64,000 bases of DNA, from the sequence record OR544956; one strand, given 5' to 3'. The DNA comes from Escherichia phage vB_EcoM_EP57. The stretch's first letter is position 1. Each line of letters opens with the position of its first letter. The translations under genes and the position numbers were made by a program. Shown in pieces: positions 10,322-39,910 of this stretch. A model generated the notes under the pieces. That model searched no databases and was not told where the DNA came from. It saw only the letters and a program-made list of their open reading frames with translations.

Positions 10322-10324
10322 GCT

Positions 10325-11169: not shown

Positions 11170-11174
11170 GCGTT

Positions 11175-11387
11175 TTATGAAATAATCGTCAAAGTAAAAT
11201 TGTAATCACCTGATTGATACAATACCTTGTCACCGAACGTTCCAACACGTTTAACATTGCAATATATACCCATAACACTTTTTACATCTTTGATATTCTT
11301 CACGCCTGTAATATCTTTATTAAAATGATCGTGATCAGAAAATAAAACTTGTTTTGCATTTTTCAACAAGGTGCAGATATTAACCAT
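11175..11387 (-). CDS. hypothetical protein (70 aa)
   Basis: ORF. Confidence 0.5.
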   Translation of the reverse strand: MVNICTLLKNAKQVLFSDHDHFNKDITGVKNIKDVKSVMGIYCNVKRVGTFGDKVLYQSGDYNFTLTIIS

Positions 11388-11410
11388 CGTGATAATCTCT
11401 CTTCTGTTGT

Positions 11411-11468
11411 GAGCGGCACCATTGCCGCCCTACGTAATACAGTTTACTCTTTTTCTTTCCCGTGTCAA
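11411..11468 (-). promoter_or_regulatory. early promoter + 5' hairpin cassette (PeSL-like)
   Basis: TTGACA then hairpin gagcggcaccattgccgcc. Confidence 0.6.
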
Positions 11469-11477
11469 CAATCTTTT

Positions 11478-11705
11478 TCAGATTAATTCATCCAGGCATA
11501 ACAGGCGATCAACGTTGAGATCGGTTAGGCTGATGGTTGGCACCTGGTAGGATTCGATGTACTCGACGCTTGCATATTCCCCAAAATTAGCAATAGCCCA
11601 CTTATTCAAGATCTCACATACATCATTAATCTTTTTGTTTGTTACAACTGCAATAACCTGGGAAGTGCCAACGGTGCCGGATACGCGAACAATATTGATA
11701 GCCAT
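11478..11705 (-). CDS. hypothetical protein (75 aa)
   Basis: ORF. Confidence 0.55.
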   Translation of the reverse strand: MAINIVRVSGTVGTSQVIAVVTNKKINDVCEILNKWAIANFGEYASVEYIESYQVPTISLTDLNVDRLLCLDELI

Positions 11706-11726
11706 AATCTTTAATCTCTCTGTTGT

Positions 11727-11788
11727 GAGCGGGAAACCACTTCCCGCCCTATGTGATACATCTTACACTAATTTTAAACGTTGTCAAC
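11727..11788 (-). promoter_or_regulatory. early promoter + 5' hairpin cassette (PeSL-like)
   Basis: TTGACA then hairpin gcgggaaaccacttcccgc. Confidence 0.55.
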
Positions 11789-11796
11789 TGTTTTTA

Positions 11797-12036
11797 TTAC
11801 ATTCCAACCATCGCGGCGCGGATCGCTGTAGTGCTATACTTGAAACCGTCCGGTGTTTTATCTTGTCCAGTTTGTTCCAGAAAAAGCATCATATCACGGG
11901 CAGCATCATTACGATTAGTATTAGCGGCGATAAATTCTTTCGCCAATCGATATAATGATTCGTCGTTATTAATCCAAAGGCTTACATTCCAATGAGTTTT
12001 GTTTTTGTGACCTAAGAACATTTTTGATTTAGCCAT
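11797..12036 (-). CDS. hypothetical protein (79 aa)
   Basis: ORF. Confidence 0.55.
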   Translation of the reverse strand: MAKSKMFLGHKNKTHWNVSLWINNDESLYRLAKEFIAANTNRNDAARDMMLFLEQTGQDKTPDGFKYSTTAIRAAMVGM

Positions 12037-12060
12037 GATATTAATCTCTTTTTCAGTGAG

Positions 12061-12119
12061 GCGGGAACTATTCCCGCTCTCTATGTAATACAGTTTACTC
12101 TTTTTATTCGTGCTGTCAA
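12061..12119 (-). promoter_or_regulatory. early promoter + 5' hairpin cassette (PeSL-like)
   Basis: TTGACA then hairpin gcgggaactattcccgc. Confidence 0.55.
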
Positions 12120-12125
12120 TGCTTT

Positions 12126-12491
12126 TTATAAATCTTTTTTACGTTTAACATCGCTTGCATGACTGTATACAGCGATCCCATTATCACGGCAAAAACGGGA
12201 AAGGTAGGCATAATTTGAAAACTCTTTACCTTCCAGGTTGATAACCTTGCTAAACTCTTCTAGGGCAACGGTATCAAAATGATCCCCATAGCCATATTGA
12301 AACGGAACGTTAACTACTTCGATCAGTTTACCGCCGATCTCAACATCAACCATCAAAGAGAAATAAGTATTACCATAAGACTTTTGAAACCAGCGACGGG
12401 CGCTAATATGTACCGCTTCAATGCTGGATAGTTCAATTTTAGCAGTGTTAGCCAGGGTAGCATAAGCAGAAACATTGATATTTTTAGCCAT
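12126..12491 (-). CDS. hypothetical protein (121 aa)
   Basis: ORF with E. coli-like codon choice. Confidence 0.6.
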   Translation of the reverse strand: MAKNINVSAYATLANTAKIELSSIEAVHISARRWFQKSYGNTYFSLMVDVEIGGKLIEVVNVPFQYGYGDHFDTVALEEFSKVINLEGKEFSNYAYLSRFCRDNGIAVYSHASDVKRKKDL

Positions 12492-12586
12492 AGTCTTTAA
12501 TCTCTTTTGATTAGTTAGGAGTATTCCCGATAAAAGTTATTATGCTTATACTATCACTCATTGTCAATAGTATAAGACTAAAACTT

Positions 12587-12766
12587 TTAACGATAATCAT
12601 TATAGGCTTTATTGACCTGGCGAATGTAACATTCGAAAGCAAGATCAATGTATTCGTATTCACGCACATAATCACCATAGGTCACTACATACATTTTTAA
12701 AGTTTCCTCATAAGCCAGGAGGATCGAATCTAAACCTATAATCTCAGTTTTTGCAATGATAGCCAT
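12587..12766 (-). CDS. small hypothetical protein (59 aa)
   Basis: hand-found ORF with RBS. Confidence 0.35.
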   Translation of the reverse strand: MAIIAKTEIIGLDSILLAYEETLKMYVVTYGDYVREYEYIDLAFECYIRQVNKAYNDYR

Positions 12767-12786
12767 GATGTTAACCTTTTATTGTT

Positions 12787-12843
12787 GGCGGCACCATTGC
12801 CGCCCTACGTGATAAACTATACCAGAATTTTAAACAGTGTCAA
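12787..12843 (-). promoter_or_regulatory. early promoter + 5' hairpin cassette (PeSL-like)
   Basis: TTGACA then hairpin ggcggcaccattgccgcc. Confidence 0.6.
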
Positions 12844-12849
12844 CCGTTT

Positions 12850-13212
12850 TTATTCGTAAATTTTACCGCTTTCGGCCCATACCATAACGCGGCGCATACT
12901 ATCCCAAGTGTTCTGATCCAAGTTTAAGCCGTGCAACTCTTCGGTACTTCCCAGACCAGGTACCGCTTTGTTGTAAGTTGCATATAAGCGCCCTTGATAC
13001 TCATACGCCAGAGTAAGATCCGTTTGAATCATCTTTTTAAGCATAGCATTAAGCATCATATTAGCGGCATGTTGATCACGTTTTAGCGGTAACATATCAA
13101 TAAGGGCGCGATAAGCTGAAACATGAATATCAACCGTTTCACGTGGTAAATTTTTCATATCATCACGGAAAGATACCAGATTAAACATGATAGTATTGAT
13201 TTGCTTGCTCAT
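12850..13212 (-). CDS. hypothetical protein (120 aa)
   Basis: ORF trimmed to ATG downstream of hairpin. Confidence 0.55.
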   Translation of the reverse strand: MSKQINTIMFNLVSFRDDMKNLPRETVDIHVSAYRALIDMLPLKRDQHAANMMLNAMLKKMIQTDLTLAYEYQGRLYATYNKAVPGLGSTEELHGLNLDQNTWDSMRRVMVWAESGKIYE

Positions 13213-13234
13213 TGTGTTACCCTTTTTTTGTTTT

Positions 13235-13295
13235 GGCGGGGAAGTATTCCGCCGCCCTATGTGATACATCTTATCAGATTAAAAAACGTTGTCAA
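13235..13295 (-). promoter_or_regulatory. early promoter + 5' hairpin cassette (PeSL-like)
   Basis: TTGACA-N16-TAAGAT then hairpin ggcggggaagtattccgccgcc. Confidence 0.6.
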
Positions 13296-13429
13296 GAATA
13301 TTTTTTAGAAAATAATAACCGCTACTACAACCCAAAATGGAACGGCTAGAATGATAGCGTTAATCGTTCCAACCGTCAAGCTATTTTCTTTATTAATCAT
13401 TGTAAGCCTCTTGCATAATTTCACTATTA

Positions 13430-13486
13430 GCGGCACCATTGCCGCCCTACGTGGTAAATATTATGCCAGTGGCGGCGATATGTCAA
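13430..13486 (-). promoter_or_regulatory. early promoter + 5' hairpin cassette (PeSL-like)
   Basis: TTGACA then hairpin gcggcaccattgccgcc. Confidence 0.55.
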
Positions 13487-14049
13487 AGACTATTTTCAAA
13501 GTTTTCTAGTGCGATCCTTTTTTCTTCCTCTGTTGGCTGATAATCAGGAAAAGCATCAACACACAACAACGGCGGGATCTCTTCGTACTCTTCCTCTTCC
13601 GTTGTCTCCTCGTCTTCCTCCTGGGCTATGGCTGCAATTTTGGCTAATTTTCTTTCAGCTTGAATCAATTTACCATCAAGTACGTTTTTTGCCATGTTGT
13701 AAGCGGTCCAGGTGATGCGCTTACTTTCCAATGCTTCATCAAGCGCCGCTATCTTGCTGGGGTATTCATCCAGGACACGAAAAGCCGGATCAACTTTGTA
13801 CAAAGGATTATCTTTCGCGCCATCGCTCGCATCTTCCGCACTGGATAAATCAGCGTTACCATTTGCCAGCCAACCAGGGCGCACATAACGCGCTTTTACG
13901 TTGCCGTTACTACGTGCTAATCTGTTACCTATTTGCTCACCGCTATACCCCGTGGATTCATCGATAAGATGATCGGGAATGATGCGCGGATCATCTGCTT
14001 CATGTTTTACCCAAGACTGGATCACATATTCGCGGCCCATATTAACCAC
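13483..14049 (-). CDS. hypothetical protein with acidic tract (188 aa)
   Basis: ORF; EEDEETTEEEEYEE stretch. Confidence 0.6.
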   Translation of the reverse strand: MVNMGREYVIQSWVKHEADDPRIIPDHLIDESTGYSGEQIGNRLARSNGNVKARYVRPGWLANGNADLSSAEDASDGAKDNPLYKVDPAFRVLDEYPSKIAALDEALESKRITWTAYNMAKNVLDGKLIQAERKLAKIAAIAQEEDEETTEEEEYEEIPPLLCVDAFPDYQPTEEEKRIALENFENSL

Positions 14050-14299
14050 CTTTTTTCAACAATTGACATACTTTAAAAAGACTTGCTGAATCCTTGCAAG
14101 GGTAGAAAGATGTACGATAATCACGTACGCCAACCTTGCGGATCTCGATGTTTTCGCATGTTGTTTGATCAAAGATATTTATTTCATCACGCCCCCTTAT
14201 ATAAACATAGTGGGGATGTATTAACGCATATTTTGCTAATCTGTAAAAAGCGTTATCTTTGAACGCGATCACGTGACCTTTTAATTTGATGTAAAACAT
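14042..14299 (-). CDS. hypothetical protein (85 aa)
   Basis: ORF. Confidence 0.5.
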   Translation of the reverse strand: MFYIKLKGHVIAFKDNAFYRLAKYALIHPHYVYIRGRDEINIFDQTTCENIEIRKVGVRDYRTSFYPCKDSASLFKVCQLLKKGG

Positions 14300-14326
14300 T
14301 CTACCACCTTACAAATAGCGGGAACT

Positions 14327-14372
14327 ATTCCCGCTTTATGTAACATATTAACAAATTATTCGTTAATGTCAA
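14327..14372 (-). promoter_or_regulatory. early promoter + 5' hairpin cassette (PeSL-like)
   Basis: TTGACA then hairpin gcgggaactattcccgc. Confidence 0.55.
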
Positions 14373-14375
14373 GCC

Positions 14376-14648
14376 TTAAAGCAAAAACGCTACATCTTGC
14401 GCTTTTAGTGTAGTATCAACCATTTTCGGGCTTTTATAATCAACAAAGCGCGCGGTTTTTTCAATAGCGAAACCGAGATAATCTTGCTTGTTGAAATTAC
14501 ATTCTTTCTTAAATGTTTCCCGTGCAATAGCGATCGCTGCGTCCAGGGATAAACGCCCGTCAATATCGATATTAGCGAAAGATCCGCCACCGCTCATAGG
14601 TTTACCAGTTGTGCCAGCTACGATCATTGTTGCGCTATATGATGCCAT
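14376..14648 (-). CDS. hypothetical protein (90 aa)
   Basis: ORF; preferred over overlapping 14405..14590. Confidence 0.5.
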   Translation of the reverse strand: MASYSATMIVAGTTGKPMSGGGSFANIDIDGRLSLDAAIAIARETFKKECNFNKQDYLGFAIEKTARFVDYKSPKMVDTTLKAQDVAFLL

Positions 14649-14671
14649 GATGATAATCTCTCTTCTGTTAC

Positions 14672-14732
14672 GAGCGGGAAACCACTTCCCGCCCTATGTG
14701 ATACATCTTATCAGGTTGTTGTTTGTTGTCAA
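14672..14732 (-). promoter_or_regulatory. early promoter + 5' hairpin cassette (PeSL-like)
   Basis: TTGACA then hairpin gcgggaaaccacttcccgc. Confidence 0.55.
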
Positions 14733-14738
14733 TAGTTT

Positions 14739-14936
14739 TTATTCTATTCCTGCGATTTGATTAACGCGCTTGCATTTTGTAGCGTGCTGGTCTTCTGTAA
14801 TGACTCCCATTTCTAACAGGGAATCAATGAAAGATAAAACCGTTTCATGATCATCCTGGGGGTGACTGAACTCAGTAAAACCGTTTACCACTACGTTGAT
14901 TTGTCCAGCTTTCGCCACAATGTGCAATGTTGCCAT
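14739..14936 (-). CDS. hypothetical protein (65 aa)
   Basis: ORF trimmed to ATG downstream of hairpin. Confidence 0.5.
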   Translation of the reverse strand: MATLHIVAKAGQINVVVNGFTEFSHPQDDHETVLSFIDSLLEMGVITEDQHATKCKRVNQIAGIE

Positions 14937-28883: not shown

Positions 28884-29489
28884 ATGCAACATAGTGTAGT
28901 AGTCAACATGCCGAATAGTGGGGATAAATCTTTTGGTGTCCCTGCTAAAAAAGTGTGGAAAGCCCATTTTCATCTTACTTTATCTAACGTTAGTTCTGAA
29001 GAGTTGATGAAAGCAGCTAAGATTATTGGTGCCAAATGCACAACAATTGATTTACATCGGGATACAAAGTCTCAACGTGATCGTATGTTAACAAAGTATC
29101 AAAGCGATCTCGACACTACTTTAATGTTGCAGTGTGTAGAAAAACTTGAGAATGCAGGTTTCAATGTTGTTCGTTACAAACTGGAACGAATGTTTAAACA
29201 TGTTGCCTGTGTTCTTTTCATGGATCTAAGTAAAGAAAATTACGGAGAAGTTCACATTAAGACTTCAGCAAGTGATCCCGAAGTAGAAACAAACTTCTTC
29301 CGTATTTCTTCTAATGCTGAAGAAATTGATTACCGATTTTATAATGCTCGCTTATATTCCGCAGAAGATAAGTTGCGTTTCAATGAAGCGTATGATATGC
29401 TCTTGAACAGTGGGATACAGATAAAAGGCTACCACATAGAACAAGTGGTAGTGGACAGTAATCTTAACTTAGACGCATGGTGGGCTTAA
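28884..29489 (+). CDS. hypothetical protein (201 aa)
   Basis: ORF; one HLTL (HxTx-like) motif only. Confidence 0.55.
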   Translation: MQHSVVVNMPNSGDKSFGVPAKKVWKAHFHLTLSNVSSEELMKAAKIIGAKCTTIDLHRDTKSQRDRMLTKYQSDLDTTLMLQCVEKLENAGFNVVRYKLERMFKHVACVLFMDLSKENYGEVHIKTSASDPEVETNFFRISSNAEEIDYRFYNARLYSAEDKLRFNEAYDMLLNSGIQIKGYHIEQVVVDSNLNLDAWWA

Positions 29490-29490: not shown

Positions 29491-30147
29491 ATGACCATTA
29501 AACATATCTCTTTTGATGTATGGAACACACTGATCACAGCAAACTCCAATTACGCAGACATGCGAGCCTGGACTATCGCAAAATATGGAGATATTACGGA
29601 AGTGGAAGCAAGAGCAACTTATAAGAAGATCAAAAAGGAACTGGATAATGCAGCACTTCAAGGCAAAGCCGAGTGTGCAGCATACGCCTGGGAAAGACTT
29701 GGTTCTGAATTTGGGATAACGCCTTGGAAGTCTGCAAAGCTTCGTTTCGAGTGTGAACAGTGGTTCCTTAAGTTTCCACCACACGTAGCCGTAGATCTGC
29801 CGATGTACTTGCTGTATCTTTCTGGGCGTTATGATTTGAGTATTAAGAGCAATACCAACTTCATATCAGGGGATATTCTGCGTCGTGCTTGTAAGTTTGA
29901 TAGTTGGAATTGTTTTGAGTTCACCCATTTCTCGGATGAAGCTTTACTTTGTAAACCAGATCCGCGATTCTTTGCTCGCACGCTCACGTATTCTCCGATC
30001 CCTCTGTTAGGGCACGAAGTGTTGCACGTAGGCGATAGTGAAGAATATGATGGAAAATGTGTTGACTTAGGGTTTAACTTCTGTCATATTAAGAACCCTA
30101 ACGACTTACTAGAGAAACTTAAAAGAGGAGAAATTGTAAATGCGTAA
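29491..30147 (+). CDS. HAD-superfamily phosphatase
   Basis: FDVWNTL, KPDP, GDSEEYD motifs. Confidence 0.6.
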   Translation: MTIKHISFDVWNTLITANSNYADMRAWTIAKYGDITEVEARATYKKIKKELDNAALQGKAECAAYAWERLGSEFGITPWKSAKLRFECEQWFLKFPPHVAVDLPMYLLYLSGRYDLSIKSNTNFISGDILRRACKFDSWNCFEFTHFSDEALLCKPDPRFFARTLTYSPIPLLGHEVLHVGDSEEYDGKCVDLGFNFCHIKNPNDLLEKLKRGEIVNA

Positions 30148-30967
30148 TCAAACTCAAATTTTTGCAAATAAATTTGATGACCTGGAAACTGCTACTTTTG
30201 ATATCCAAGATTATTCAAAATTGAAATTTGGTAGTAACCAAGCTGCGCGTCGTATGGGTAAAGAATTGGCACTTCAGTTTTTTGCTCAAGTGGCAATGAA
30301 ACATATTGGGGAACAATTTGTTATCATTCCTTCTCCTTACAACCATGTGTATAATGCTGCAACAATGATGACAGATCATTTTATTAATTACTTCAATATG
30401 TTGCAAGCACAATATGATCAAGGTCGTTCAGCAGAACTGGACATTATTCATCGTAAAGTTAGCTATATCAACGATTATGGTTTCTTGGATAAAGCTAGTC
30501 GTAAGAAACTTATTGATGGGGATACATTCTACTGTAACAAAGAATTCTGGGGGGATAAGAAGCTTGTATTCATTGATGATGTAAATATCACTGGAACGCA
30601 TGAAGACAAACTGATTGAGATCCTTAATGAAAATCAAGTTAAAAATGATGTTTACTTCCTGTATTTTGCAAAATATGAAGGTAATCAAGCAGATACCGAA
30701 GCTAAACTGAATTTTAACTACATTAATACACCGGAAGCGTTTGTTAAAATGATTAATGAAGAACGTGATGCACAGTGTCTTGTTCGTCCTATTAAGTATC
30801 TTATGGGCCAAAATCATGAAGACTTCAAAATCATTCTTAGCCAATTGCCACATTACTATGTAGAGCAACTTTTCTTTGGATGCTTGGGAGAAGGTTACAA
30901 CCGAATTTCAAAGTATGCTGAAAACTTTGAATTCTTGGATCGTTACACAAAACAACACATTCTGTAA
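30140..30967 (+). CDS. type-I phosphoribosyltransferase-like protein
   Basis: PRPP-binding motif LVFIDDVNITGTHE. Confidence 0.6.
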   Translation: MRNQTQIFANKFDDLETATFDIQDYSKLKFGSNQAARRMGKELALQFFAQVAMKHIGEQFVIIPSPYNHVYNAATMMTDHFINYFNMLQAQYDQGRSAELDIIHRKVSYINDYGFLDKASRKKLIDGDTFYCNKEFWGDKKLVFIDDVNITGTHEDKLIEILNENQVKNDVYFLYFAKYEGNQADTEAKLNFNYINTPEAFVKMINEERDAQCLVRPIKYLMGQNHEDFKIILSQLPHYYVEQLFFGCLGEGYNRISKYAENFEFLDRYTKQHIL

Positions 30968-30980
30968 TAAGGAGCTAAAA

Positions 30981-31454
30981 ATGCTTAAAATGAAAACAGG
31001 TAATCTTATTGATGCCGCTAAAGCAGGTGAAGTAACTGTTATTGCTCATTGTTGCAACTGTATGTGTAATATGGGGGCAGGTATTGCCCCACAAATCAAA
31101 CGAGCATTTCCTTACGCATATGCAGCAGACTTAGGCACAATGGCTGGTGATCAAAGTAAACTAGGTTGTTTTAGTTTAGGGGTGCCAGACGAACAATCAG
31201 ACCCTTTGGTATATAATCTATACGGGCAATACCGTTACGGATACAATGCTAAAGGTCGTCAGTTGGACTATGATGCACTTTACGATGCACTAATAGCTAT
31301 GGCTAACGATTTGCTTCTCCGTGACCAAAAATGTAAGATCGGCTTACCTATGATTGGCGCTGGATATGCTGGAGGTAATTGGGCTATCATCCAAGTGATG
31401 ATTGAAGAAACTTTAGTAAAAACAGGTTACGATGTGACTATTTATAAACTTTAA
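30981..31454 (+). CDS. macrodomain protein, TARG1/DarG-like
   Basis: IAHCCNCMCNMGAGIA and GLPMIGAGY..VTIYKL resemble TARG1. Confidence 0.65.
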   Translation: MLKMKTGNLIDAAKAGEVTVIAHCCNCMCNMGAGIAPQIKRAFPYAYAADLGTMAGDQSKLGCFSLGVPDEQSDPLVYNLYGQYRYGYNAKGRQLDYDALYDALIAMANDLLLRDQKCKIGLPMIGAGYAGGNWAIIQVMIEETLVKTGYDVTIYKL

Positions 31455-31466
31455 GAGGAGATTAGT

Positions 31467-31688
31467 ATGGGTGTTTTTGCAGGTATTGTTGCAGTGGTAA
31501 GCTTTTTTGTTATTGCTTTTATGCTTAGTTTGATTCCAGCTTGGTTATTGTTGCTGGCTTACAACTATGTTGCTGAGGTTATGGGTCATGCAGATATCAC
31601 TGTCCCAGTAACCTTCTGGACCGTGGTTTGTGTTTCGTTTATTCTGGCTGTATTACGAGGAATCTTTTCCTCTCATTCAACAAAATAA
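31467..31688 (+). CDS. small membrane protein (73 aa)
   Basis: two hydrophobic helices. Confidence 0.5.
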   Translation: MGVFAGIVAVVSFFVIAFMLSLIPAWLLLLAYNYVAEVMGHADITVPVTFWTVVCVSFILAVLRGIFSSHSTK

Positions 31689-31691
31689 GTG

Positions 31692-31750
31692 TTGACATAG
31701 TTCTTAAAAAGAGTAAGATGTATCACATGAAGCGGGGAATAGTTCCCCGC
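31692..31750 (+). promoter_or_regulatory. early promoter + 5' hairpin cassette (PeSL-like), plus strand
   Basis: TTGACA-N17-TAAGAT, gtatcacat, hairpin gcggggaatagttccccgc. Confidence 0.6.
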
Positions 31751-31767
31751 AAAGAGAGGAGAAAAGA

Positions 31768-32686
31768 ATGCAACTTGGTTTCCCAATTATTGATGTAGTT
31801 GTTTTAGTTGGTATTTTAGCATTGTCTATTGGTATTGATTTCTTTGGTCACAAAGAAAATAAAGAAATTTCATTCAAATCCGCAGTTGGTTGGTCGATCT
31901 TTTGGATTGGTGTATCATTAGCTTATTATGGTTTTGTATACTTCCAACATGGTGCCGATTTTGCTAACTTGTTTTTAAGTGGATATGTGTTGGAAAAATC
32001 TTTGTCGGTAGATAACTTGGTAGTATTTGTAGCAGTATTCGCAAGTTTTGGTATTAAAAGCACACACTTGCAGCACAATAGGCACTTACTTGTTAAGTTT
32101 GGGCTGGTATGTTAATATCTTCTTCGGTGCGGTCATCCTTTTCTGTGCAGCTAAAATGGTATTTGCTGGAGATAATGACGCAGAAGTTGATTACTCTAAA
32201 CACTGGGCTACCCGTATTGTTCGTAAACTGTTCCCTGTATCTAATAAAATGGATGGGGAGAAGTTCTTCACAATCGAAAATGGTGTTCGTGTAGCAACTC
32301 CAGCTTTGGTTTGCGTATTCGTGATGGAAATGGTGGATGTAATCTTTGCAGTAGATTCGGTTCCAGCGGTGATCGCAGTGACACAAGAACCCCTGCTTGT
32401 ATTCTCTTCGATGTTATGTGCAATCTTAGGTCTACGTGCTCTGTTCTTTGTTCTTAGTGTCGCACTGAAGTATCTGGTTCACTTGGAGAAAGCAGTTATT
32501 GTGGTTCTGGTGTTTGTAGGCGTTAAACTGATGTATCACCCGTTTGCAGAAACATTGCATGAGAAAATGAGTTTCCTGCCAGCACATATTGATCCAACTA
32601 TTAGTATGTATATCGTGCTTGGTACTTTGGCCCTTGGTGTTATTGCAAGCTTTATCTTCCCTGAAAAAGAAGAAGCTACTGTTTAA
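31768..32686 (+). CDS. terC: TerC-family membrane protein, frameshifted
   Basis: LSVDNLVVF and QH motifs; ORFs 31768..32115 and 32048..32686. Confidence 0.65.
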
Positions 32687-32691
32687 TAAAT

Positions 32692-32717
32692 GAGCCTCCT
32701 TCGGGAGGCTATTTTAT
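32692..32717 (+). terminator. rho-independent terminator
   Basis: GAGCCTCC-TTCG-GGAGGCT plus ATTTTAT. Confidence 0.6.
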
Positions 32718-32728
32718 AGGAGAGACTT

Positions 32729-33079
32729 ATGAGTAATTTTGATGAAATTCAAGAACTTGTTTGGGATTTATCTGGTGATGTGGATTACATTTCAGATTAT
32801 CTTTCAAAAGTTTACCCTGGGGTAAGCGTTATGATTGTGACCAAAGATCCAATTAATTTGCCTCCTAATGTTGTAGCTTGTTGTGGAAGTGGTTCAGGAG
32901 AAGTAGAGCCTGTATCTCGTTGGGAATTAACTAAAGCTGTTTCAAAACGAAACGGTGAAGTTTTGAATATTGATATTGAGCAAATATGGACTTCTCCAGC
33001 AGCCAAATGGAATGATCCAAATGGTTGGGATTTGTTCTTCTGGGATAATGAGACTGATGATGAGGTGTTTTTAAAATGA
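32729..33079 (+). CDS. hypothetical protein (116 aa)
   Basis: ORF. Confidence 0.55.
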   Translation: MSNFDEIQELVWDLSGDVDYISDYLSKVYPGVSVMIVTKDPINLPPNVVACCGSGSGEVEPVSRWELTKAVSKRNGEVLNIDIEQIWTSPAAKWNDPNGWDLFFWDNETDDEVFLK

Positions 33080-33321
33080 AATACTTGTTGGTTGTGTTTG
33101 AAAATATCTGTTTTGCAATAGGGTTGTTTGTTGTAATTTTTGTATTGACAAGCGTAATCAACGGCAGTAAAGTGAGTTTATACCGAGATGGAGAGCAACT
33201 TTATTGCTTCTCTGGAGATTTCAAACACAGATGTATTAATAGCCAAAACGAGGAAAGCAAATATGAAAAAACTAGCCCTGATTTTAATTGGTTGTATCTT
33301 TTTAACAGCTTGCGAGGATGA
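33076..33321 (+). CDS. small membrane protein (81 aa)
   Basis: N-terminal TM helix; overlaps next start. Confidence 0.4.
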   Translation: MKYLLVVFENICFAIGLFVVIFVLTSVINGSKVSLYRDGEQLYCFSGDFKHRCINSQNEESKYEKTSPDFNWLYLFNSLRG

Positions 33322-33700
33322 AACAAATCCTGCACAATACCAACAACCTCCTCAACAATACGCTCAACAAGGATCTGACGGAGATACAACTATTATCAAC
33401 AATGGTGGCGGTTCTAGTAGTAGCGGTGTTGGTGAGTTTGCTACAGGTATGTTGTTAGGGCATATGATGAGTGGCGGTAGTAATCGTAGCAGTGGGGATT
33501 ATAACGATAACAGAACGATTATTAATAAGCATTATAATACACCTAAACCGAAAACTAATTTTTATGGTAAGCCTAAACAAGAGATAAAAACTTATGAAAA
33601 GCCGAGACAAACTTTTAAAACAAATAGTAGCTATACAACTCGTAAATCTTACAATAGCCCTTTAAGTAAAAAGAGTTCATCTCGTAGCAAGCGACGTTAA
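33263..33700 (+). CDS. lipoprotein (145 aa)
   Basis: signal peptide and lipobox LTAC; Gly/Ser-rich. Confidence 0.6.
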   Translation: MKKLALILIGCIFLTACEDETNPAQYQQPPQQYAQQGSDGDTTIINNGGGSSSSGVGEFATGMLLGHMMSGGSNRSSGDYNDNRTIINKHYNTPKPKTNFYGKPKQEIKTYEKPRQTFKTNSSYTTRKSYNSPLSKKSSSRSKRR

Positions 33701-33714
33701 TAAGGAGAAAAACA

Positions 33715-34308
33715 ATGACAATTTCTATTCGTACTTCCATCGTAGGTGTTAAAAGGTTGCCTAATGCTTTGCAAATCACACGCGCTTTGAGGGATACATT
33801 CTCTGCTGTGGACGAGCATAAGATGCTTGATAATCTTTCAAATTGGCCCTATTTCCATTATTTTAAAAATGAAGATGACGAGTTTATAGACGCTGTTTCT
33901 TATGGTTATGATTTCGGTAAGGAGGTTTCTGCTGAAGAATTTGTAGCTATGGTGTTCCCAAACGGTTTGCCTACTCGCAGTAAACGTAAAAAAGGACCAA
34001 AAAACAAGAAACGTGCTACTAATAAAGCTACCATTTTCTTTACTGATGGCACACAATATACGATTAAAGATTTTGAAGAGGTATCTTATACAGCAGGTGG
34101 GAATCTTTCTTTCTACACCATCAAAAAACAAAACTCTACGTTCAGCCATGTTTCTAACATGATTGAAATGTTAGTAGAAGATATTGAAAGCGTAGCTGTG
34201 TTAGGTATGCATAAAAGCTTTTTAATTACAAATATTTCAGATTTCAGTGCAAGTTTATCTGGCCCTGATTTTGAAGCCACGACCACGCATTTCGCTTTTA
34301 AGGTGTAA
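33715..34308 (+). CDS. hypothetical protein (197 aa)
   Basis: ORF with AAGGAG RBS. Confidence 0.55.
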   Translation: MTISIRTSIVGVKRLPNALQITRALRDTFSAVDEHKMLDNLSNWPYFHYFKNEDDEFIDAVSYGYDFGKEVSAEEFVAMVFPNGLPTRSKRKKGPKNKKRATNKATIFFTDGTQYTIKDFEEVSYTAGGNLSFYTIKKQNSTFSHVSNMIEMLVEDIESVAVLGMHKSFLITNISDFSASLSGPDFEATTTHFAFKV

Positions 34309-34311
34309 GTT

Positions 34312-34902
34312 ATGCATACCGAGAGAGACTTGCAACTCTTGTGGTGGGAAGTGATGCAGGAAATAAAAGAAGATTTTCCTGTTTACTACAACATGTTACG
34401 TGAAGCAGGATATAAAGCTTGTGTTAGAAACAAAGTGAATAACTCTTTCGGTTGGTGCAACTACCGAGATAAAATTGTTGTTGTAAATTGGCACTTGCAT
34501 AAGAACTCCACAAGAGATATGATCGTGGATACAATGAAGCACGAAATTGCTCATGCTATTGATGGTTGTATGGGTAAGTTTAGTAGGCACGGTGCTCATT
34601 GGCAAAAACTGGCAGCAGAATTAGGGGCTAATCCTAAAGCCACTTCCAAAGAGCCGTTGAACCACGAATATAAATATGTTCTTGTTCTGGTAGATAGGTT
34701 TGCGACAAGATGTGTTAGAGGTTATAATCGTAAACCTAATCGCATGTACCCAGGTAAGCAACCTAATATGTGGTTGAAATCAGATAAAGAAGGGACCGAA
34801 GGAAAATTATGGTTGTATAAATGGGACGATTGGGTTAAAGTAGCTAAAGAGTACGGTGTTTCACCATATATAAGAGATGCAGAAGAGGAGAATGAAGAAT
34901 GA
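34312..34902 (+). CDS. SprT-like zinc metalloprotease
   Basis: HEIAHAI with downstream HG.HW. Confidence 0.55.
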   Translation: MHTERDLQLLWWEVMQEIKEDFPVYYNMLREAGYKACVRNKVNNSFGWCNYRDKIVVVNWHLHKNSTRDMIVDTMKHEIAHAIDGCMGKFSRHGAHWQKLAAELGANPKATSKEPLNHEYKYVLVLVDRFATRCVRGYNRKPNRMYPGKQPNMWLKSDKEGTEGKLWLYKWDDWVKVAKEYGVSPYIRDAEEENEE

Positions 34903-36011
34903 CAAGTCCATTTTTAAAAGCAGCTACTGGTGGTCAGAAGAAGCCTGAAATGAGCGTATTTGCTGCAACAACAGATGCAAGTAAATCTGTATTCGCTCCA
35001 AGCGTGTTAGATGCCAGTCCTGTTTATGCACCAGCGGCACCGCAAGAAGTTCCAGTTTTGCCTTCTATGACCCGACAAGAGATCGAAGAGATTGGGGCAG
35101 AGGCAGGAACAACCTTGCGTTCCTTGAATGCCGAGGTATTAAAACATCAACGTAGTAATCAAGGCGATCAGATGAGTGAACGACTCACAGCTTTGATTAA
35201 ACAGGCAAAACAACTTGATCCAAACTCTATTAAACAAAGCAAGGGTATTACTAAACTCATTAAAAAAGTTATGGGTATGAAAGAAGACCTGTTTGGGGAG
35301 TTTGATAATGTTAATAACCGTATTGAAGAGTTGGTAAAGAACCTTCAAATGGATATTCGCAAAGAAGAAGATTCCTTGGTATATCTTGAAAAGCTACATC
35401 AAGCTATTGGACAATATGCTGCAAGTTTGAACCGAGATATGCAGCTTCTAACAGCAACCTATGAAAAAGAAGAACAAGCTTTGGCTGCTCTTCCAGAAGA
35501 TGCAGTAGAACAGCGACAAGTGATCCGAGATACTTTGGATCTTCTGGAGATTCGTATTGCAGATTTAAAAGCATTGCGCCTACTGTGTGTCCAAATGGGA
35601 CCGCGTGTACAAGGTATGCAAAAAGTTTCTGCAAGCTTAATGCGATCTGCGCGTAACATAGTAAATAATGTTATTCCTGCTTACTCTGCTAACTTCTCAA
35701 TGTATATAGAGAGCTTACGTCAAATGAAAGCAGCAGAGACGCAGAATAACGTTCTTGATGAATTTAACCTGGCAATTAAACTGGGTAGCGATCTTGCCAC
35801 ACAGAATCAGATCGAAGCAGCAGCACTGGCTAACCGTCAAGTGTTGGATATTGAAACTCTGCGTCACGATCAGGAAAACTTGGTTAAGATGTTGGAAGAA
35901 ACTAACCGCATCAATACGGAAGCCCGTGCTGCTCGTGTTGATTATATTAATGAAGTTCAATCTCTGGAAGACGGGATGGTAGCTGCTGTGAAACGAGGGC
36001 TTGGTAAATGA
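34899..36011 (+). CDS. coiled-coil protein, possible TelA-like
   Basis: 370 aa helical protein in Ter context; assignment by size and composition. Confidence 0.35.
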   Translation: MTSPFLKAATGGQKKPEMSVFAATTDASKSVFAPSVLDASPVYAPAAPQEVPVLPSMTRQEIEEIGAEAGTTLRSLNAEVLKHQRSNQGDQMSERLTALIKQAKQLDPNSIKQSKGITKLIKKVMGMKEDLFGEFDNVNNRIEELVKNLQMDIRKEEDSLVYLEKLHQAIGQYAASLNRDMQLLTATYEKEEQALAALPEDAVEQRQVIRDTLDLLEIRIADLKALRLLCVQMGPRVQGMQKVSASLMRSARNIVNNVIPAYSANFSMYIESLRQMKAAETQNNVLDEFNLAIKLGSDLATQNQIEAAALANRQVLDIETLRHDQENLVKMLEETNRINTEARAARVDYINEVQSLEDGMVAAVKRGLGK

Positions 36012-36205
36012 GAATCCGTATCTATATAATTGATGAAGACATTGGTGTCCGTTATGATGACGAAAAACGATTCGCACCGATGGGAGGTATATATCCCCCA
36101 AGTGTTCTAGCAGTTTGTCGTGATTGTTATATTTATGAAGGTTGTCGTAACTTCCGTAAATTCGAACTCCTTGCAGATATTGACTTCAATGAGGAGGAGG
36201 AGTAA
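36008..36205 (+). CDS. hypothetical protein (65 aa)
   Basis: ORF. Confidence 0.45.
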   Translation: MRIRIYIIDEDIGVRYDDEKRFAPMGGIYPPSVLAVCRDCYIYEGCRNFRKFELLADIDFNEEEE

Positions 36206-36378
36206 TGAAAATATTACGAGTGAATATTGAAACTGCTTGGTGTGGATGCAATGAGGTTGTGGATATCGAAATTGAAGATGATATGTCTCAAGAGGATATA
36301 GAAGATCTTGCGCACGAAACCTTTCAGGATTATTGTAATTACGGGTTCCATATTTTAGAGGAGGAAGAAGATGTTTAA
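36205..36378 (+). CDS. small acidic protein (57 aa)
   Basis: hand-found ORF, GAGGAGGAGG RBS. Confidence 0.4.
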   Translation: MKILRVNIETAWCGCNEVVDIEIEDDMSQEDIEDLAHETFQDYCNYGFHILEEEEDV

Positions 36379-36546
36379 TTGACTCGACAGGAACTGATCA
36401 CAATCATTGAAGATGCTTTTATTGATGGCTGGAATACACAAGATAATGACTGGGGTGGACCCGAAGCTTTTCTGGAACATCATAAAACTTATGGAGACTC
36501 TTGTGAAACCACTGTAGCTCTTGATAATCTGAAGGAGGGTTTGTAA
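36379..36546 (+). CDS. small hypothetical protein (55 aa)
   Basis: hand-found ORF, TTG start. Confidence 0.3.
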   Translation: MTRQELITIIEDAFIDGWNTQDNDWGGPEAFLEHHKTYGDSCETTVALDNLKEGL

Positions 36547-37109
36547 TGGGTTGTTTTAGCTTTTTGTGCAAAGAATCGGGCAAAGCTGCCCTTTCTACTT
36601 CTTTCGACGGATCACCTTGCTACCTCTTTCTTTTGAAGGACGGTGTTGTTATTGAAGAGATGTATGGCAACTATGATAGTTATGGTTGTGTTTTCTCTGG
36701 AAAGGAGGATGAAAACGGCGTTCGTGAACGATTTGAATGGGCTATGGATTGGGGTAAGGTTTGTGATTTGATGCATTCCTCAAATCCAAGGGACGGTATC
36801 GCTATGGTGCTGGAAGAGTACTTTACAGGTGAAATCCCTACAGAACAATCTGACGGAGATCCTAACCAAGGTTGGGGTGATGGTGAAGAAGATCCAGATT
36901 GTTTTTTCAGCACAGAAAAGAATAAGTTTAAACGTGTTGACAACCCTTATCACAAAGTGCATAATACTCTCATTGAAACAGAAGATGACAAGATGGAAAT
37001 TGAAGAAGATGATCCTCTTGTAACACTTCCTGTAAGTGAGTTACAAAAGATCACTAAGGAAGCTTACGATTTGGGCTTCAAAATTGGTAGAGGAGGTATG
37101 CGTGTTTAG
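36546..37109 (+). CDS. acidic hypothetical protein (187 aa)
   Basis: ORF. Confidence 0.55.
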   Translation: MGCFSFLCKESGKAALSTSFDGSPCYLFLLKDGVVIEEMYGNYDSYGCVFSGKEDENGVRERFEWAMDWGKVCDLMHSSNPRDGIAMVLEEYFTGEIPTEQSDGDPNQGWGDGEEDPDCFFSTEKNKFKRVDNPYHKVHNTLIETEDDKMEIEEDDPLVTLPVSELQKITKEAYDLGFKIGRGGMRV

Positions 37110-37380
37110 ATTCAATATTCAAGAAGAAAAAAGTCAGGATTTACCTATTGCTTTCGAAGATCTTGACGTAGGGGCCACATTCATGTATTATGATGCCTAT
37201 GAAGACGCAGGGTTGGATACCTACCGTAACTTGGTGTTCATTAAAAATTCCACAAACAGTGCGATCTGTATTAATGGATCACTAGCACAACGAGGCTATA
37301 CTCATTGCATCCCACCAGATACAAATATGGTGGAAGTAGATTTAGAAGTTACCAATATTACACTTAAGAAGGAGAAATAA
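37102..37380 (+). CDS. small protein, paralog family member A (92 aa)
   Basis: GTG after GAGGAGG; paralog of 38402..38671. Confidence 0.5.
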   Translation: MFRFNIQEEKSQDLPIAFEDLDVGATFMYYDAYEDAGLDTYRNLVFIKNSTNSAICINGSLAQRGYTHCIPPDTNMVEVDLEVTNITLKKEK

Positions 37381-37381
37381 T

Positions 37382-38176
37382 ATGTCCGAGAAAATCAGCC
37401 TGAAAAAACGTCAAGAAAACCTTGCTTTCTCTCTGAAAAAGAATAAGAACCTGAATGAAGGTAAGATTGTTCTTCGTGTAGCATGTGCTCTAGATATTTC
37501 TGGTAGTATGCATGGTCTATATTCTAGTGGGGTAGTGAGTGATTTTGTAGGTAAACTGCTTCCTTTTGGTATGCTGTTCGACGATAATCAACAAATTGAT
37601 ATGTGGGCCTTCAATACGAGTTCCCAAGAGCTTACTCCAGCAACAGCAGATGTTTACGATGACTATGTTGGTAAATGTATGCGTAATGTTCGTATCGGAG
37701 GTGGAACAAATTACGCCCCTGTAATGGCGGATATCTACGATGAGTATTTTGGCACTGTTACTAAATATATTACCACTAAACAAGTGGTACAAGAGGAGGC
37801 TCCAAAGAAAGGTTTCTTTAATCGTCTACTTGGTAAAACTGAAACAGTATCTGTAGAGCGTGAAAAGGTCGTAGCTGTATCTGAACCAGGTGCTGACGTT
37901 ACCCCTGGTGTTGTATTCTTCCAGACAGACGGTGAGAATGGTGATCCTAGTGCTGTTCGTCGTCTTATCGAAGAGAATAAGAATAAACCTATTTATTGGT
38001 TCATGGTTGGCGTTGGTAATGAGAAGTTTGGCTTCCTGAAAGAACTGGCAAATGCTTATGATAATGTTGGTTTTATTGGCATTAAAGATTTAGACTTGAC
38101 AGATTCAGAGCTTTATGACAAACTCTTATCTGAAGAGTTCGGAGAGTGGGTTGTTAAAGTAGGTGCTAAAAAATGA
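37382..38176 (+). CDS. vWA-domain protein, TerY-like
   Basis: MIDAS motif DISGSM; TerD-like N-terminus ISLKK. Confidence 0.65.
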   Translation: MSEKISLKKRQENLAFSLKKNKNLNEGKIVLRVACALDISGSMHGLYSSGVVSDFVGKLLPFGMLFDDNQQIDMWAFNTSSQELTPATADVYDDYVGKCMRNVRIGGGTNYAPVMADIYDEYFGTVTKYITTKQVVQEEAPKKGFFNRLLGKTETVSVEREKVVAVSEPGADVTPGVVFFQTDGENGDPSAVRRLIEENKNKPIYWFMVGVGNEKFGFLKELANAYDNVGFIGIKDLDLTDSELYDKLLSEEFGEWVVKVGAKK

Positions 38177-38421
38177 TCGACGAGCTTGCCTCTCAAGTCA
38201 TAGAAAATTATTGGCGCGAGAGAGAAGCTTTCATTATGCGCAGTCTCAAAGAGTATTTCATTGGGACTGTGCGAATGGAAGATATTGTAAGTAGAGTAGA
38301 GATTCATGTATGGCCCGATTATGAAGAATGGGTTGACAAAGAAAATGAAAATGCTATAATTCTTCGTATATACAAACCGGAGATAACATTAGGAGGAAGA
38401 AGTGTTAAACTTCGAAATTGA
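38173..38421 (+). CDS. hypothetical protein (82 aa)
   Basis: ORF. Confidence 0.5.
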   Translation: MIDELASQVIENYWREREAFIMRSLKEYFIGTVRMEDIVSRVEIHVWPDYEEWVDKENENAIILRIYKPEITLGGRSVKLRN

Positions 38422-38671
38422 TGAGCAAAAAGTAAATAAACGATGCCTTACCATTAAAGATTTGGATGTAGGAGATACTTTCGTCTATGAAAATGCATTT
38501 GACGAAAATGGTTTAGACCTTAGTGAAATCATTGTTTATTTAAAAGTAGATGATGGGGAAAATGATTATTCTGCTGTAGAACTAAACCATCATGCACAAT
38601 TAGTATCAATCCAAAACACATCTAAGCTTTTGGAAGTAGAATTGACTGTAACTGGTATTACACTTAAATAA
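38402..38671 (+). CDS. small protein, paralog family member B (89 aa)
   Basis: GTG after AGGAGGAAG; shares DLDVG.TF.Y..A.D..GLD and EV.L.VT.ITLK. Confidence 0.5.
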   Translation: MLNFEIDEQKVNKRCLTIKDLDVGDTFVYENAFDENGLDLSEIIVYLKVDDGENDYSAVELNHHAQLVSIQNTSKLLEVELTVTGITLK

Positions 38672-38686
38672 TAGAGGAGACAAAAG

Positions 38687-39289
38687 ATGACTGATAAAAT
38701 TTCCCTGAAAAAAGGCTCTAGCGAAAAAATTTCCCTGAAGAAAGTTGCTCCGGCTCTGAAAGAACTACGCCTGGAATTCTCTTGGAAATCTGATTCTAAA
38801 CTAGATCTGGATGTAAGTGCACTGGTTTGTCGTCACAATGCCGCTGGCAATCCTGAAATGCTGTCTGCACGTCATCTGGTTTGCTATGCTAACAAGTTTG
38901 ATCCTGAACGTTCTACCTTCGCTGGTGACGATGTTCGTGATGGAACTGGCAGCATGGAGCAGATTGATATTACTCTGGCTAAAATCTCTCCTGATGCACA
39001 AGAGATTGCCTTTGTTCTGACCATTGATGATGATACAGGTCTGAAACGTTTTGGTCATGCTTCTGAAGGTATGCTTAAAATCTTCGACTCCGAGCGCAAT
39101 GTGGAAATTCTGGATTTTGACTTCCTGGCTCCTGAAGTAGCTGGCAACACAATCTGCCACGTGGCTTCCTTGGTTCGTGAAGATGGGGAATGGAAGCTGA
39201 AAGCATATGGTGTAGGTAAAGCTGGTCTGGATATTTGTGATGTGGTGATGGCCTTCGGTGGTAAAAAAGAATGGTATGAATGTCCGTAA
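38687..39289 (+). CDS. terD: TerD-family stress protein
   Basis: ISLKKG repeats, LDLDVSAL, GDDVRDGTG, GEWKLKAYGVG; highly optimised codons. Confidence 0.8.
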   Translation: MTDKISLKKGSSEKISLKKVAPALKELRLEFSWKSDSKLDLDVSALVCRHNAAGNPEMLSARHLVCYANKFDPERSTFAGDDVRDGTGSMEQIDITLAKISPDAQEIAFVLTIDDDTGLKRFGHASEGMLKIFDSERNVEILDFDFLAPEVAGNTICHVASLVREDGEWKLKAYGVGKAGLDICDVVMAFGGKKEWYECP

Positions 39290-39388: not shown

Positions 39389-39910
39389 TTGCTGATAAAA
39401 AACTTTGTAACAGTTGCGTTACTATCCTTAACTGCTTTTACATTTACACCTGTTGTGGCGAAAGCCGAAGCTGCAAACGTAAAAACCGCTAAAGTAGTTC
39501 ACAAATGTACAAAGCAATATAATGATAAAATTCTATTAGCTTGTGCAATTTACGCAGAAGGTCGCGGTCTGGGTAAAAAAGGAATGAATGCCGTTGGGAA
39601 TGTGGTAATCAACAGAAGAAATGATACCTACTTCCCTAACACAGTCAGAGGAGTCTTGTTCCAGAAAGGGCAATTCTCATATGCGAAAACTTTTAACGTA
39701 ACAGAGAAAGATAAGTGGCAGGAAGCAAAAGCAATAGCGGAGCGTTTACTTTATTTAGAGAAACATTTTCCTGAATTGCGGTCTGTTTTAGATGTTACTA
39801 AAGGTGCTCTATACTTCAAGAAACGGAATATAAGAACACACTGGGAACGTGATATGCGTCTTGTTTATCGAGATAAAGTGCATGGTTTCTATCTACCAAA
39901 GGGGAGTTAA
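39389..39910 (+). CDS. secreted SleB/CwlJ-like cell-wall hydrolase
   Basis: signal peptide; AIYAEGRG..VGNVVINR. Confidence 0.6.
   Translation: MLIKNFVTVALLSLTAFTFTPVVAKAEAANVKTAKVVHKCTKQYNDKILLACAIYAEGRGLGKKGMNAVGNVVINRRNDTYFPNTVRGVLFQKGQFSYAKTFNVTEKDKWQEAKAIAERLLYLEKHFPELRSVLDVTKGALYFKKRNIRTHWERDMRLVYRDKVHGFYLPKGS

Follow-up and report, generated by a model that had tools for sequence, protein, structure and literature searches.

The region discussed here lies at 29491-39289 of a 64,000-nucleotide stretch of Escherichia phage vB_EcoM_EP57 (sequence record OR544956; the whole stretch is called the window below). Judging from family profiles and genome comparison, there is very little doubt that this block of genes is a conserved, abbreviated Ter-like (tellurite-resistance-like) accessory region of the Stephanstirmvirinae, that is, of Phapecoctavirus, Justusliebigvirus with phi92, and their relatives. 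Its recurrent core is six genes, encoding an Alx-type TerC (or TerC-like) protein, TerD, a TerF-type vWA/MIDAS protein, TelA and an adjacent pair made up of a HAD hydrolase and a phosphoribosyltransferase (PRTase) of the PRTase_3 family; it was drawn from comparison with phi92, Klebsiella phage 05F01, phages of Rhizobium, Xanthomonas and Caulobacter, and two phage-like metagenome contigs. Taking the identity of this Ter module together with a protective function that we propose for it, we give the reading a probability of roughly 0.45. An earlier, sequence-only reading of the window had regarded such a cassette as undescribed in a virulent phage. That view has to be abandoned: the block is common and known, record annotations of it go back to 2012, and a paper discussed it in 2021.

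The six core families and where they occur

The core genes of the block are as follows.

29491-30147, plus strand: HAD-superfamily hydrolase (Pfam Hydrolase 21.2 bits, cut-off 26.4; phrog_14393 'hydrolase', 3e-116)
30140-30967, plus strand: type I phosphoribosyltransferase, PRTase_3, ComF-like (Pfam PF15610, E 6.7e-42, 144 bits)
31768-32686, plus strand: terC of the Alx subfamily, disrupted (Pfam TerC on both fragments, 3.8e-5 and 9.4e-22)
34899-36011, plus strand: TelA-family protein (Pfam PF05816, E 3.2e-33, 115.7 bits, cut-off 30, profile positions 13-327 of 332)
37382-38176, plus strand: vWA-TerF-like protein with an intact MIDAS, DISGS...T...D (Pfam PF10138, E 1.6e-37, 130 bits, cut-off 29.4)
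38687-39289, plus strand: TerD-family protein (Pfam PF02342, E 3.2e-28, 98.9 bits, cut-off 25.3, residues 5-179)

Most of the family assignments made earlier from the letters alone stand. The alignments of TerD to the solved Klebsiella structure (2kxt, 1.5e-15) and to 3ibz run the whole length of the protein, what had been called a possible TelA-like protein matches the TelA profile almost end to end, and the PRTase is a clear member of its family. We regard the HAD assignment as secure on profile evidence despite its sub-threshold Pfam score; the family profile matches the HAD structure PDB 2om6 at 9e-21 and motifs I-IV are present. The vWA protein fared less evenly. Its vWA domain and MIDAS are intact as predicted, but the TerD-like N-terminus that had been ascribed to it comes down to a motif of about 20 residues, (S/T)(E/D)KISLKK, shared with TerD (BLASTP E 0.013), and Pfam finds no TerD domain on it. 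Its supposed likeness to TerY also falls away: the protein matches no PADLOC model, those for TerY-P included, and none of the 20 block open reading frames (ORFs) scanned contains the kinase or phosphatase domain of a TerY-P triad. By its profile match it is classed as the C-terminal TerF type.

The HAD and PRTase genes overlap (30140-30147) and appear to form a unit, HAD lying directly upstream of PRTase_3 in every case seen, in five unrelated phage groups and on Rhizobium and Sinorhizobium plasmids. The loop that binds phosphoribosyl pyrophosphate (PRPP) in the PRTase, L-x3-DDVxITGTHE, is invariant across 30 homologues. An AlphaFold2 (AF2) model with a predicted local distance difference test score (pLDDT) of 93 gave HGXPRT/HGPRT (2e-6), ComF (7p0h) and PyrR as the best Foldseek matches, and on this model the protein resembles a nucleobase PRTase to which a helical domain has been added at the C-terminus. 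We also considered a glycan ribofuranosyltransferase pair of the 7shg type (gPRT/PRP). The PRTase_3 profile misses 7shg even at E <= 10, 7shg falls outside the top 50 Foldseek matches, and the fold is that of a nucleobase PRTase, so this reading was dropped; the HAD profile matches the HAD domain of 7shg weakly (3.4e-4), and 7shg is kept solely as an analogy for two-step chemistry.

The surroundings of the pair vary. In Rhizobium and Xanthomonas phages it sits beside NMNAT/Nudix, PurA and RNA-ligase genes, and on Rhizobium and Sinorhizobium plasmids beside glycosyltransferase, UbiA prenyltransferase, epimerase and SMR-transporter genes. On the Sinorhizobium garamanticum plasmid NZ_CP120375 (150506-169285), for example, it lies among genes for a large glycosyltransferase, a radical SAM protein and an NAD-dependent epimerase, with those for a GMC oxidoreductase, a UbiA prenyltransferase and an SMR transporter in the same stretch. 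This gene set is reminiscent of PRPP-derived pentofuranose (DPA-like) glycan pathways, and the context hints that in bacteria the pair may serve something other than Ter signalling. A search for PRTase homologues on IncHI2 ter plasmids gave none at E <= 1e-5, the only plasmids matched being those of Rhizobium, Sinorhizobium and Hymenobacter.

Comparison of 29491-39289 with 50,697 phage records by megablast places the window in Phapecoctavirus (Stephanstirmvirinae) as a phAPEC8-like E. coli phage. The block matched 125 records, and in 63 of these at least 80% of it was covered; the best match was Escherichia phage tuntematon (99.5% identity), while phAPEC8, sequenced in 2012, stood at 96.8%. 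Within Phapecoctavirus the DNA identity of the block is 95-99.5%. The TelA of the window is 100% identical to the phAPEC8 protein, and its TerD has counterparts at 99% identity or more in 64 phage records (100% in all 12 of the top-listed matches). Several records carry the label of a Campylobacter, Acinetobacter or Pseudomonas phage at an identity of 97% to these E. coli phages; MG065650 ('Campylobacter phage B15') and OP562383 ('Acinetobacter phage vB_AbaM_ABPW7') are examples, and the host labels look doubtful.

Beyond the genus, all core components are present in phi92 at 49-95% identity, and all were found in records of Brevundimonas and Caulobacter jumbo phages. Across the phage collection homologues of TelA occur in 222 records, of PRTase_3 in 156 and of TerD in 145. 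A functional link among the core families is supported by two unrelated phage-like metagenome contigs, one of them 350 kb long, on which the genes cluster in different orders: TerC, TerD, vWA, HAD and PRTase_3 within about 10 kb on the first (L012), and TelA, vWA, TerC, HAD, PRTase_3 and TerD within about 10 kb on the second (L013).

There is ample precedent for Ter genes in virulent phages. The phi92 record already names gp182 a 'membrane bound tellurium resistance protein', gp178 a 'toxic anion resistance protein', gp172 a 'stress protein', gp186 a PRTase and gp187 a hydrolase, and many Phapecoctavirus records carry Ter-type product names likewise. The blocks of phAPEC8, tuntematon, phi92 and other Stephanstirmvirinae are the same block as ours, with a gene order matching that of phi92, which differs in lacking the SprT-like gene and the second phrog_11278 copy that are both present in the window. 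In Klebsiella phage 05F01 the position of terC is taken by a gene annotated as DUF475, and the TerC of the window finds no match there. Clusters of terC, terD, terF and telA in virulent phages appear in the papers on phiKp34 and PhiPsa374, which also refer to previous reports. A phage Ter system that includes PRTase and HAD was described by Iyer et al. 2021 (PMC7824862), who proposed that it acts against superinfecting phages, suggested host xenobiotic or tellurite resistance as an additional possibility, and mentioned Ter genes in 'certain other related smaller tailed phages'. In its restatement of Anantharaman et al. 2012, the same paper counts PRTase and HAD among the 'nucleoside-like metabolite' enzymes of the bacterial Ter network, and so bears out the connection that the sequence-only reading had drawn.

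These described systems (Acinetobacter phage ME3 and Caulobacter jumbo phages in Iyer et al. 2021, phiKp34 and PhiPsa374), all from virulent phages, share TerC, TerD, a TerF-type vWA protein and TelA with the block, and ME3 has in addition, by the description of Iyer et al., the PRTase and HAD. They differ in that, apart from PhiPsa374 (about 99 kb), they come from jumbo phages, in that their hosts are other than E. coli, and in that their TelA and TerD are only 20-28% identical to those of the block. Common and described as the block is, a literature search turned up nothing on how it is expressed or what it does in phAPEC8-like phages, and no experiment that characterises it.

The bacterial and plasmid ter operon (terZABCDEF, as on IncHI2 R478 and in E. 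coli O157), together with the wider Ter network, shares the TerC, TerD, TerF-type vWA, TelA, PRTase and HAD families with the block. Among the scanned ORFs the block differs in having no TerB, no TerZ/A/E series, no ATP-grasp, aldolase or ligase enzymes and no TerY-kinase-phosphatase triad, and its TerC is Alx-type. A minimal combination without TerB is also found in the Bacillus subtilis stress operon yceCDEFGH, which encodes TerD paralogues, the TerC-family protein YceF and the TelA-family protein YceH; this operon has neither the vWA protein nor the PRTase-HAD pair and is chromosomal and regulated by sigma factors. The name 'general stress protein 16U / yceD' is given to the TerD homologue in several phage records.

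The terC unit and expression of the block

The sequence-only reading had placed a TerC-family membrane protein at 31768-32686. The family is right, but a single uninterrupted ORF carrying all the TerC membrane helices does not exist in the window. The ORF listing has two overlapping ORFs in different frames instead (31768-32115 and 32048-32686), because a clean 56-bp deletion at 32078/32079, evident on alignment to relatives including tuntematon, shifts the frame. All 65 of the 65 database records that span the site keep the extra 56 bp, the deletion being unique to the window, and it is probably an artefact of the source sequence.

The wider state of the window is relevant here. The entire window is collinear with tuntematon 53-77,497 at 96-100% identity, but relative to tuntematon it lacks about 24 segments of 27-2225 bp each, some 13.4 kb in sum, with clean junctions. 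Many of these deletions fall inside ORFs, including nrdD and tail, tail-fibre and baseplate genes, irrespective of reading frame, and the gp102 homologue lacks 222 bp relative to its relatives.

2015/2171, 8387/8388, 16694/16695, 23409/23410, 26477/26478, 27322: deletion junctions, examples, from the alignment to tuntematon
27449/27450, 32078/32079, 36379, 52245/52248, 58585/58586, 61148/61149: further examples, same alignment

A source assembly that is gapped or mis-joined, or else a defective genome, would account for this pattern; biology specific to terC would not. Frameshifts seen in the window are untrustworthy for this reason, and we have accordingly used the intact 324-residue gene of relatives in considering TerC function. 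The nrdD homologue of phi92 (gene 192/192A) is annotated with a 'spliced variant' joined from two pieces, which suggests an intron and is a separate matter from the nrdD deletions of the window.

The intact TerC, taken from a relative with 99.5% identity, scored 319 bits against TIGR03718 (TerC/Alx metal homeostasis membrane protein; cut-off 246), and among cellular genes it is closest to chromosomal TerC/Alx genes of Pasteurellaceae, Moraxella and Vitreoscilla, at about 50% identity. A host origin for terC was considered and rejected, as none of 5,426 E. coli genomes has DNA resembling the gene. The alx gene and other TerC genes are often preceded by a yybP-ykoY leader. The phage gene differs in this respect from E. 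coli alx, which it otherwise resembles at the level of the family: a riboswitch in front of terC was sought, but no match at the Rfam gathering threshold occurs anywhere in the window, and the leader is instead a phage early promoter with a generic early-gene hairpin.

31692-31750, plus strand: early-type promoter and conserved 5' leader hairpin before terC (TTGACA-16-TAAGAT; hairpin GCGGGGAA-TAG-TTCCCCGC at 31732-31750)
32693-32710, plus strand: hairpin resembling an intrinsic terminator and closing the terC unit (AGCCTCC-TTCG-GGAGGCT, then a T-rich tail)
38333-38360, plus strand: perfect sigma-70 consensus promoter before phrog_11278 copy B and terD (TTGACA-16-TG-TATAAT, 12/12, extended -10 TG)
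14732, 14372, 13486, 13295, 12843, 12119, 11787, 11468, minus strand: early-cassette promoters, examples
10321, 9886, 9419, 8262, 7899, 7459, 6659, 5148, minus strand: early-cassette promoters, further examples

As had been noticed from the sequence, terC carries the leader of the phage's early genes. The order is TTGACA-16-TAAGAT, GTATCACAT, a GC hairpin (GCGGGGAA/TTCCCCGC) and a ribosome-binding site, and it is the only plus-strand copy in the window of a cassette that otherwise precedes about 18 small minus-strand early genes at 5-15 kb. In each of those copies (about 5100-14750) a promoter of the TTGACA type leads into a start region resembling GTATCACAT; next come a GC-rich 5' hairpin (GGGCGG...CCGCCC; about -12 to -21 kcal/mol), which may serve mRNA stability or regulation, and a small ORF. 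The layout of promoter, hairpin, gene and terminator is retained with compensatory stem changes in three lineages, and because it is kept in phi92 and in 05F01 we regard terC as an autonomous unit driven by a host-type promoter. The earlier observation that terD uses highly optimised codons also proved sound. Its fraction of E. coli-optimal codons is the second-highest among 60 ORFs (0.646, z = +2.5, the list of optimal codons having been taken from general knowledge), and TerD is predicted from this to be highly expressed.

Lineage-specific neighbours

The remaining genes of the block appear, from their distribution, to lie outside the core.

30981-31454, plus strand: stand-alone macrodomain of the TARG1/DarG/SCO6735 class, between the PRTase gene and terC (Pfam Macro 21.7 bits, cut-off 22)
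31467-31688, plus strand: small hydrophobic predicted membrane protein of 73 residues upstream of terC (phrog_16065; partly conserved in phi92)
33076-33321, plus strand: hydrophobic predicted membrane protein of 81 residues (49% identical to phi92 gp181; no family match)
33263-33700, plus strand: predicted lipoprotein (lipobox LTAC within MKKLALILIGCIFLTAC, Gly/Ser-rich mature part; start codon taken from relatives; no family match)
34312-34902, plus strand: SprT-like zinc metallopeptidase, HEIAH (Pfam PF10263, E 4.2e-9, 36.7 bits, cut-off 25.6)
36546-37109, plus strand: protein of 187 residues (phrog_14928), between telA and the vWA gene in Stephanstirmvirinae, 76% identical in phi92
37102-37380, plus strand: phrog_11278 small protein, copy A, found just upstream of the vWA gene in every case; conserved in phi92 and 05F01
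38402-38671, plus strand: phrog_11278 small protein, copy B, upstream of terD, a duplication specific to Phapecoctavirus

The SprT-like, macrodomain, lipoprotein, small membrane, 187-residue and phrog_11278 proteins are specific to Stephanstirmvirinae or narrower. The SprT-like gene, whose stop overlaps the telA start, does belong to the family named in the sequence-only reading; it was wrongly counted there as a member of the module, as it occurs in 05F01 (43% identity) but not in phi92 or on either metagenome contig, and on these comparisons it is, like the macrodomain and several of the small ORFs, best treated as a lineage-specific neighbour. The macrodomain gene had been left out of the earlier gene list. 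Its closest structures are SCO6735 (5e3b, 4e-13), TARG1 (1e-6) and DarG (5m31, 2e-6), it matches the PADLOC DarG model at 5e-10, and it is present in phi92 (49% identity) and in none of the other Ter clusters compared. It is probably a neighbour and not a core Ter component, and by its family it could reverse ADP-ribosylation by host defence toxins (DarT-like) rather than act in Ter.

The lipoprotein gene sits in a run of small membrane-protein genes around terC, and its predicted product is a candidate for receptor blocking or superinfection exclusion. The two phrog_11278 copies are paralogous (34% identity, E 2e-14). The idea that this small protein and the vWA protein together constitute a 'split TerF' was rejected, as hhalign gave a probability of 0.35% for the phrog_11278 family against the TerD family. 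The 187-residue protein has no Pfam or PDB match, and a weak relative of it exists in an unrelated phage contig. Downstream, a SleB-type endolysin gene (39389-39910 in the window) directly follows terD in Phapecoctavirus, phi92 and 05F01.

Directly upstream of the HAD gene, 28884-29489 encodes a protein of 201 residues which matches two PADLOC 'AbiEi' models at 4.7e-13 over nearly its full length and has no Pfam family. In its AF2 model (pLDDT 83), which gave no convincing structural match, ferredoxin-like folds stand in tandem, and the HxHxT and ExHxK motifs are invariant. A homologue (36% identity) in an unrelated phage contig lies immediately upstream of an Acb1 (anti-CBASS) gene and near a NADAR gene, and an anti-defence function for 28884-29489 is possible. 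A reading of this gene as a 2H phosphoesterase belonging to Ter was rejected; its homologues elsewhere are not beside HAD-PRTase, and the gene is absent from phi92 and 05F01.

A proposed protective function and its alternatives

As to what the block does, we tentatively suggest a protective function that closes the infected cell to competitors, although we hold it at somewhat worse than even odds. We propose it because of family-level knowledge, gene context, the role against superinfecting phages put forward by Iyer et al. 2021, and the phage-inhibition and colicin-resistance phenotypes of the R478 ter cluster (Whelan 1995, as cited in the phiKp34 and PhiPsa374 papers). In this scenario: (i) terC, as an early and self-contained unit, would put a TerC/Alx transporter of divalent cations (Mn2+-type) into the inner membrane soon after infection; (ii) abundant TerD (with its Ca2+-binding fold), the MIDAS vWA protein and TelA would assemble under the membrane, as has been proposed for bacterial Ter; (iii) the type I PRTase would join a base of unspecified kind to PRPP, and the HAD protein would remove the 5'-phosphate to yield a nucleoside-like ligand or signal; and (iv) the envelope and ion balance would be held stable, such that the infected cell is closed to superinfecting phages, colicins and membrane-damaging host responses. 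The closed state would last until the phage lysis genes, which lie immediately downstream of the block, act.

Several points weigh against the proposed protective Ter function. The composition is short of a full system: among the 20 block ORFs scanned with Pfam there is no TerB and no further TerD paralogue (TerZ/A/E), nor is there an ATP-grasp, aldolase/TIM or ligase domain. Enzymes of the latter three kinds belong to the full bacterial 'nucleoside-like metabolite' module. The Ca2+-binding motifs of Klebsiella TerD are DxD and GDN-x-TG-x-GDGDDE; in the alignment to 2kxt the phage TerD keeps LDLD and GDD..DGTG but has 'GSME' in place of 'GDDE', the motif thus being partly altered. TerC, by its TIGR03718 score and its nearest relatives, is Alx-type, unlike that of ter operons. 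The HAD protein lacks the Asp+2 general acid typical of phosphatases and has in its place a Trp (FDVWNTL) that is invariant in 8 phage and plasmid homologues; the FDVWNTL motif is common to HAD homologues from seven of the loci compared (L007-L013) and to the Pyrococcus horikoshii structure 2om6. A phosphatase is still plausible from the family, but because Asp+2 is replaced by an invariant Trp this activity is not assured, and the chemistry of the Ter-linked 'phosphatase' may be unusual. Neither TerD, TelA, vWA, TerC, PRTase nor HAD matches a model in PADLOC-DB v2 at E <= 0.01. Finally, our literature search found no experiment on any phage Ter gene, and the PhiPsa374 authors consider the phage ter set incomplete.

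The components of the core also occur apart, which counts on the same side and gives substance to what we consider the most serious, if doubtful, alternative: that the block is a row of independent neighbouring units, namely a HAD-PRTase nucleoside or ribosylation unit (with the macrodomain and anti-defence-type genes around it), a terC/alx 'moron' for metal homeostasis and a TelA-vWA-TerD membrane unit. HAD-PRTase travels alone in Rhizobium and Xanthomonas phages and on Rhizobium and Sinorhizobium plasmids, with no detectable TelA in the Rhizobium phages and plasmids; TelA is found without PRTase_3 in Otagovirus and RaK2-like jumbo phages; and the PRTase of CcrColossus lies about 20 kb from the TelA site of related Caulobacter phages. 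The DarG/TARG1-like nature of the macrodomain and the Acb1-adjacent homologue of 28884-29489 fit the first of these units. The terC gene is bounded by a promoter and a terminator of its own and has diverged differently. Its product is 95% identical to the phi92 TerC when the neighbouring proteins are at 49-81%, and one Phapecoctavirus, Ro121c4YLVW, has an allele at 74%. By these identities terC is to be seen as having an evolutionary history separate from that of its neighbours, and the cassette seems to have been exchanged horizontally among Phapecoctavirus and Justusliebigvirus phages. Set against such independence are the tight six-family clusters, in shuffled order, on unrelated phage contigs, the presence of all components together in Stephanstirmvirinae, Brevundimonas and Caulobacter phages, and the association of PRTase and HAD with Ter reported for bacteria (Iyer et al. 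2021, PMC7824862).

An unlikely alternative is auxiliary metal homeostasis: TerC/Alx would be an exporter of Mn2+ or similar cations, Ca2+ or Mg2+ would be buffered by TerD and the vWA protein, and the phage would gain a cytoplasm suited to its enzymes, or metal for its exported proteins, rather than the exclusion of competitors. By its score the intact TerC belongs fully to the TerC/Alx 'metal homeostasis' subfamily, with chromosomal housekeeping genes as nearest relatives, TerD has the fold of the Ca2+-binding Klebsiella protein, the vWA MIDAS is intact, and the block lies directly downstream of nrdD and nrdG. In K. pneumoniae, terC is reported to contribute to zinc resistance (PMC12054061), and the terD operons of Jug phages are paired with a Ca2+ P-type ATPase. 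This explanation leaves TelA and the PRTase-HAD pair unaccounted for. Moreover, E. coli K-12 is among the recorded hosts of relatives and terC is broken here (provided that the sequence is faithful), which means that a benefit could only be conditional.

We consider it improbable that the block serves counter-defence, with the phage copies disturbing host Ter or another immunity based on membrane or nucleotide signals whether by titrating a signal, by standing in for host components or by making the membrane withstand the pore formers of abortive infection. In favour of it, bacterial ter loci inhibit phages (Whelan 1995, as cited in the phiKp34 and PhiPsa374 papers). The flanking genes, that is, the DarG/TARG1-type macrodomain and 28884-29489 with its AbiEi matches and Acb1-adjacent homologue, look like anti-defence genes, but the Ter proteins themselves match no known anti-defence family. 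E. coli K-12 is not known to carry a ter operon, which also counts against this explanation. By their taxonomy these phages are strictly lytic, and this speaks against a benefit to a host in pseudolysogeny or a carrier state. Tellurite or xenobiotic resistance for such a host, to which the family names point and which Iyer et al. 2021 suggested, is accordingly very improbable, given also the lack of TerB and TerZ/A/E and the opinion of the PhiPsa374 authors that tellurite resistance is unlikely for the incomplete set.

As a discovery the block matters little, being a standard annotated feature of a large and well-sampled group of coliphages; the remaining interest is in its function. In this respect the phage block would be a convenient experimental system for deletion, metabolomics and ion-flux work, because it is a minimal set of six families with clear promoters and because E. 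coli K-12 is the recorded host of many relatives. A more specific version of the protective scenario, and one that we think rather improbable as a whole, is that PRTase_3 and the Trp-variant HAD make a nucleoside which TerD senses, thereby switching a TerC-TelA-vWA assembly that excludes phages and pore-forming toxins. If this were true, Ter systems, the subject of functional debate since the 1990s, would have their first mechanism, and superinfection exclusion would have a new kind, one controlled by a small molecule.

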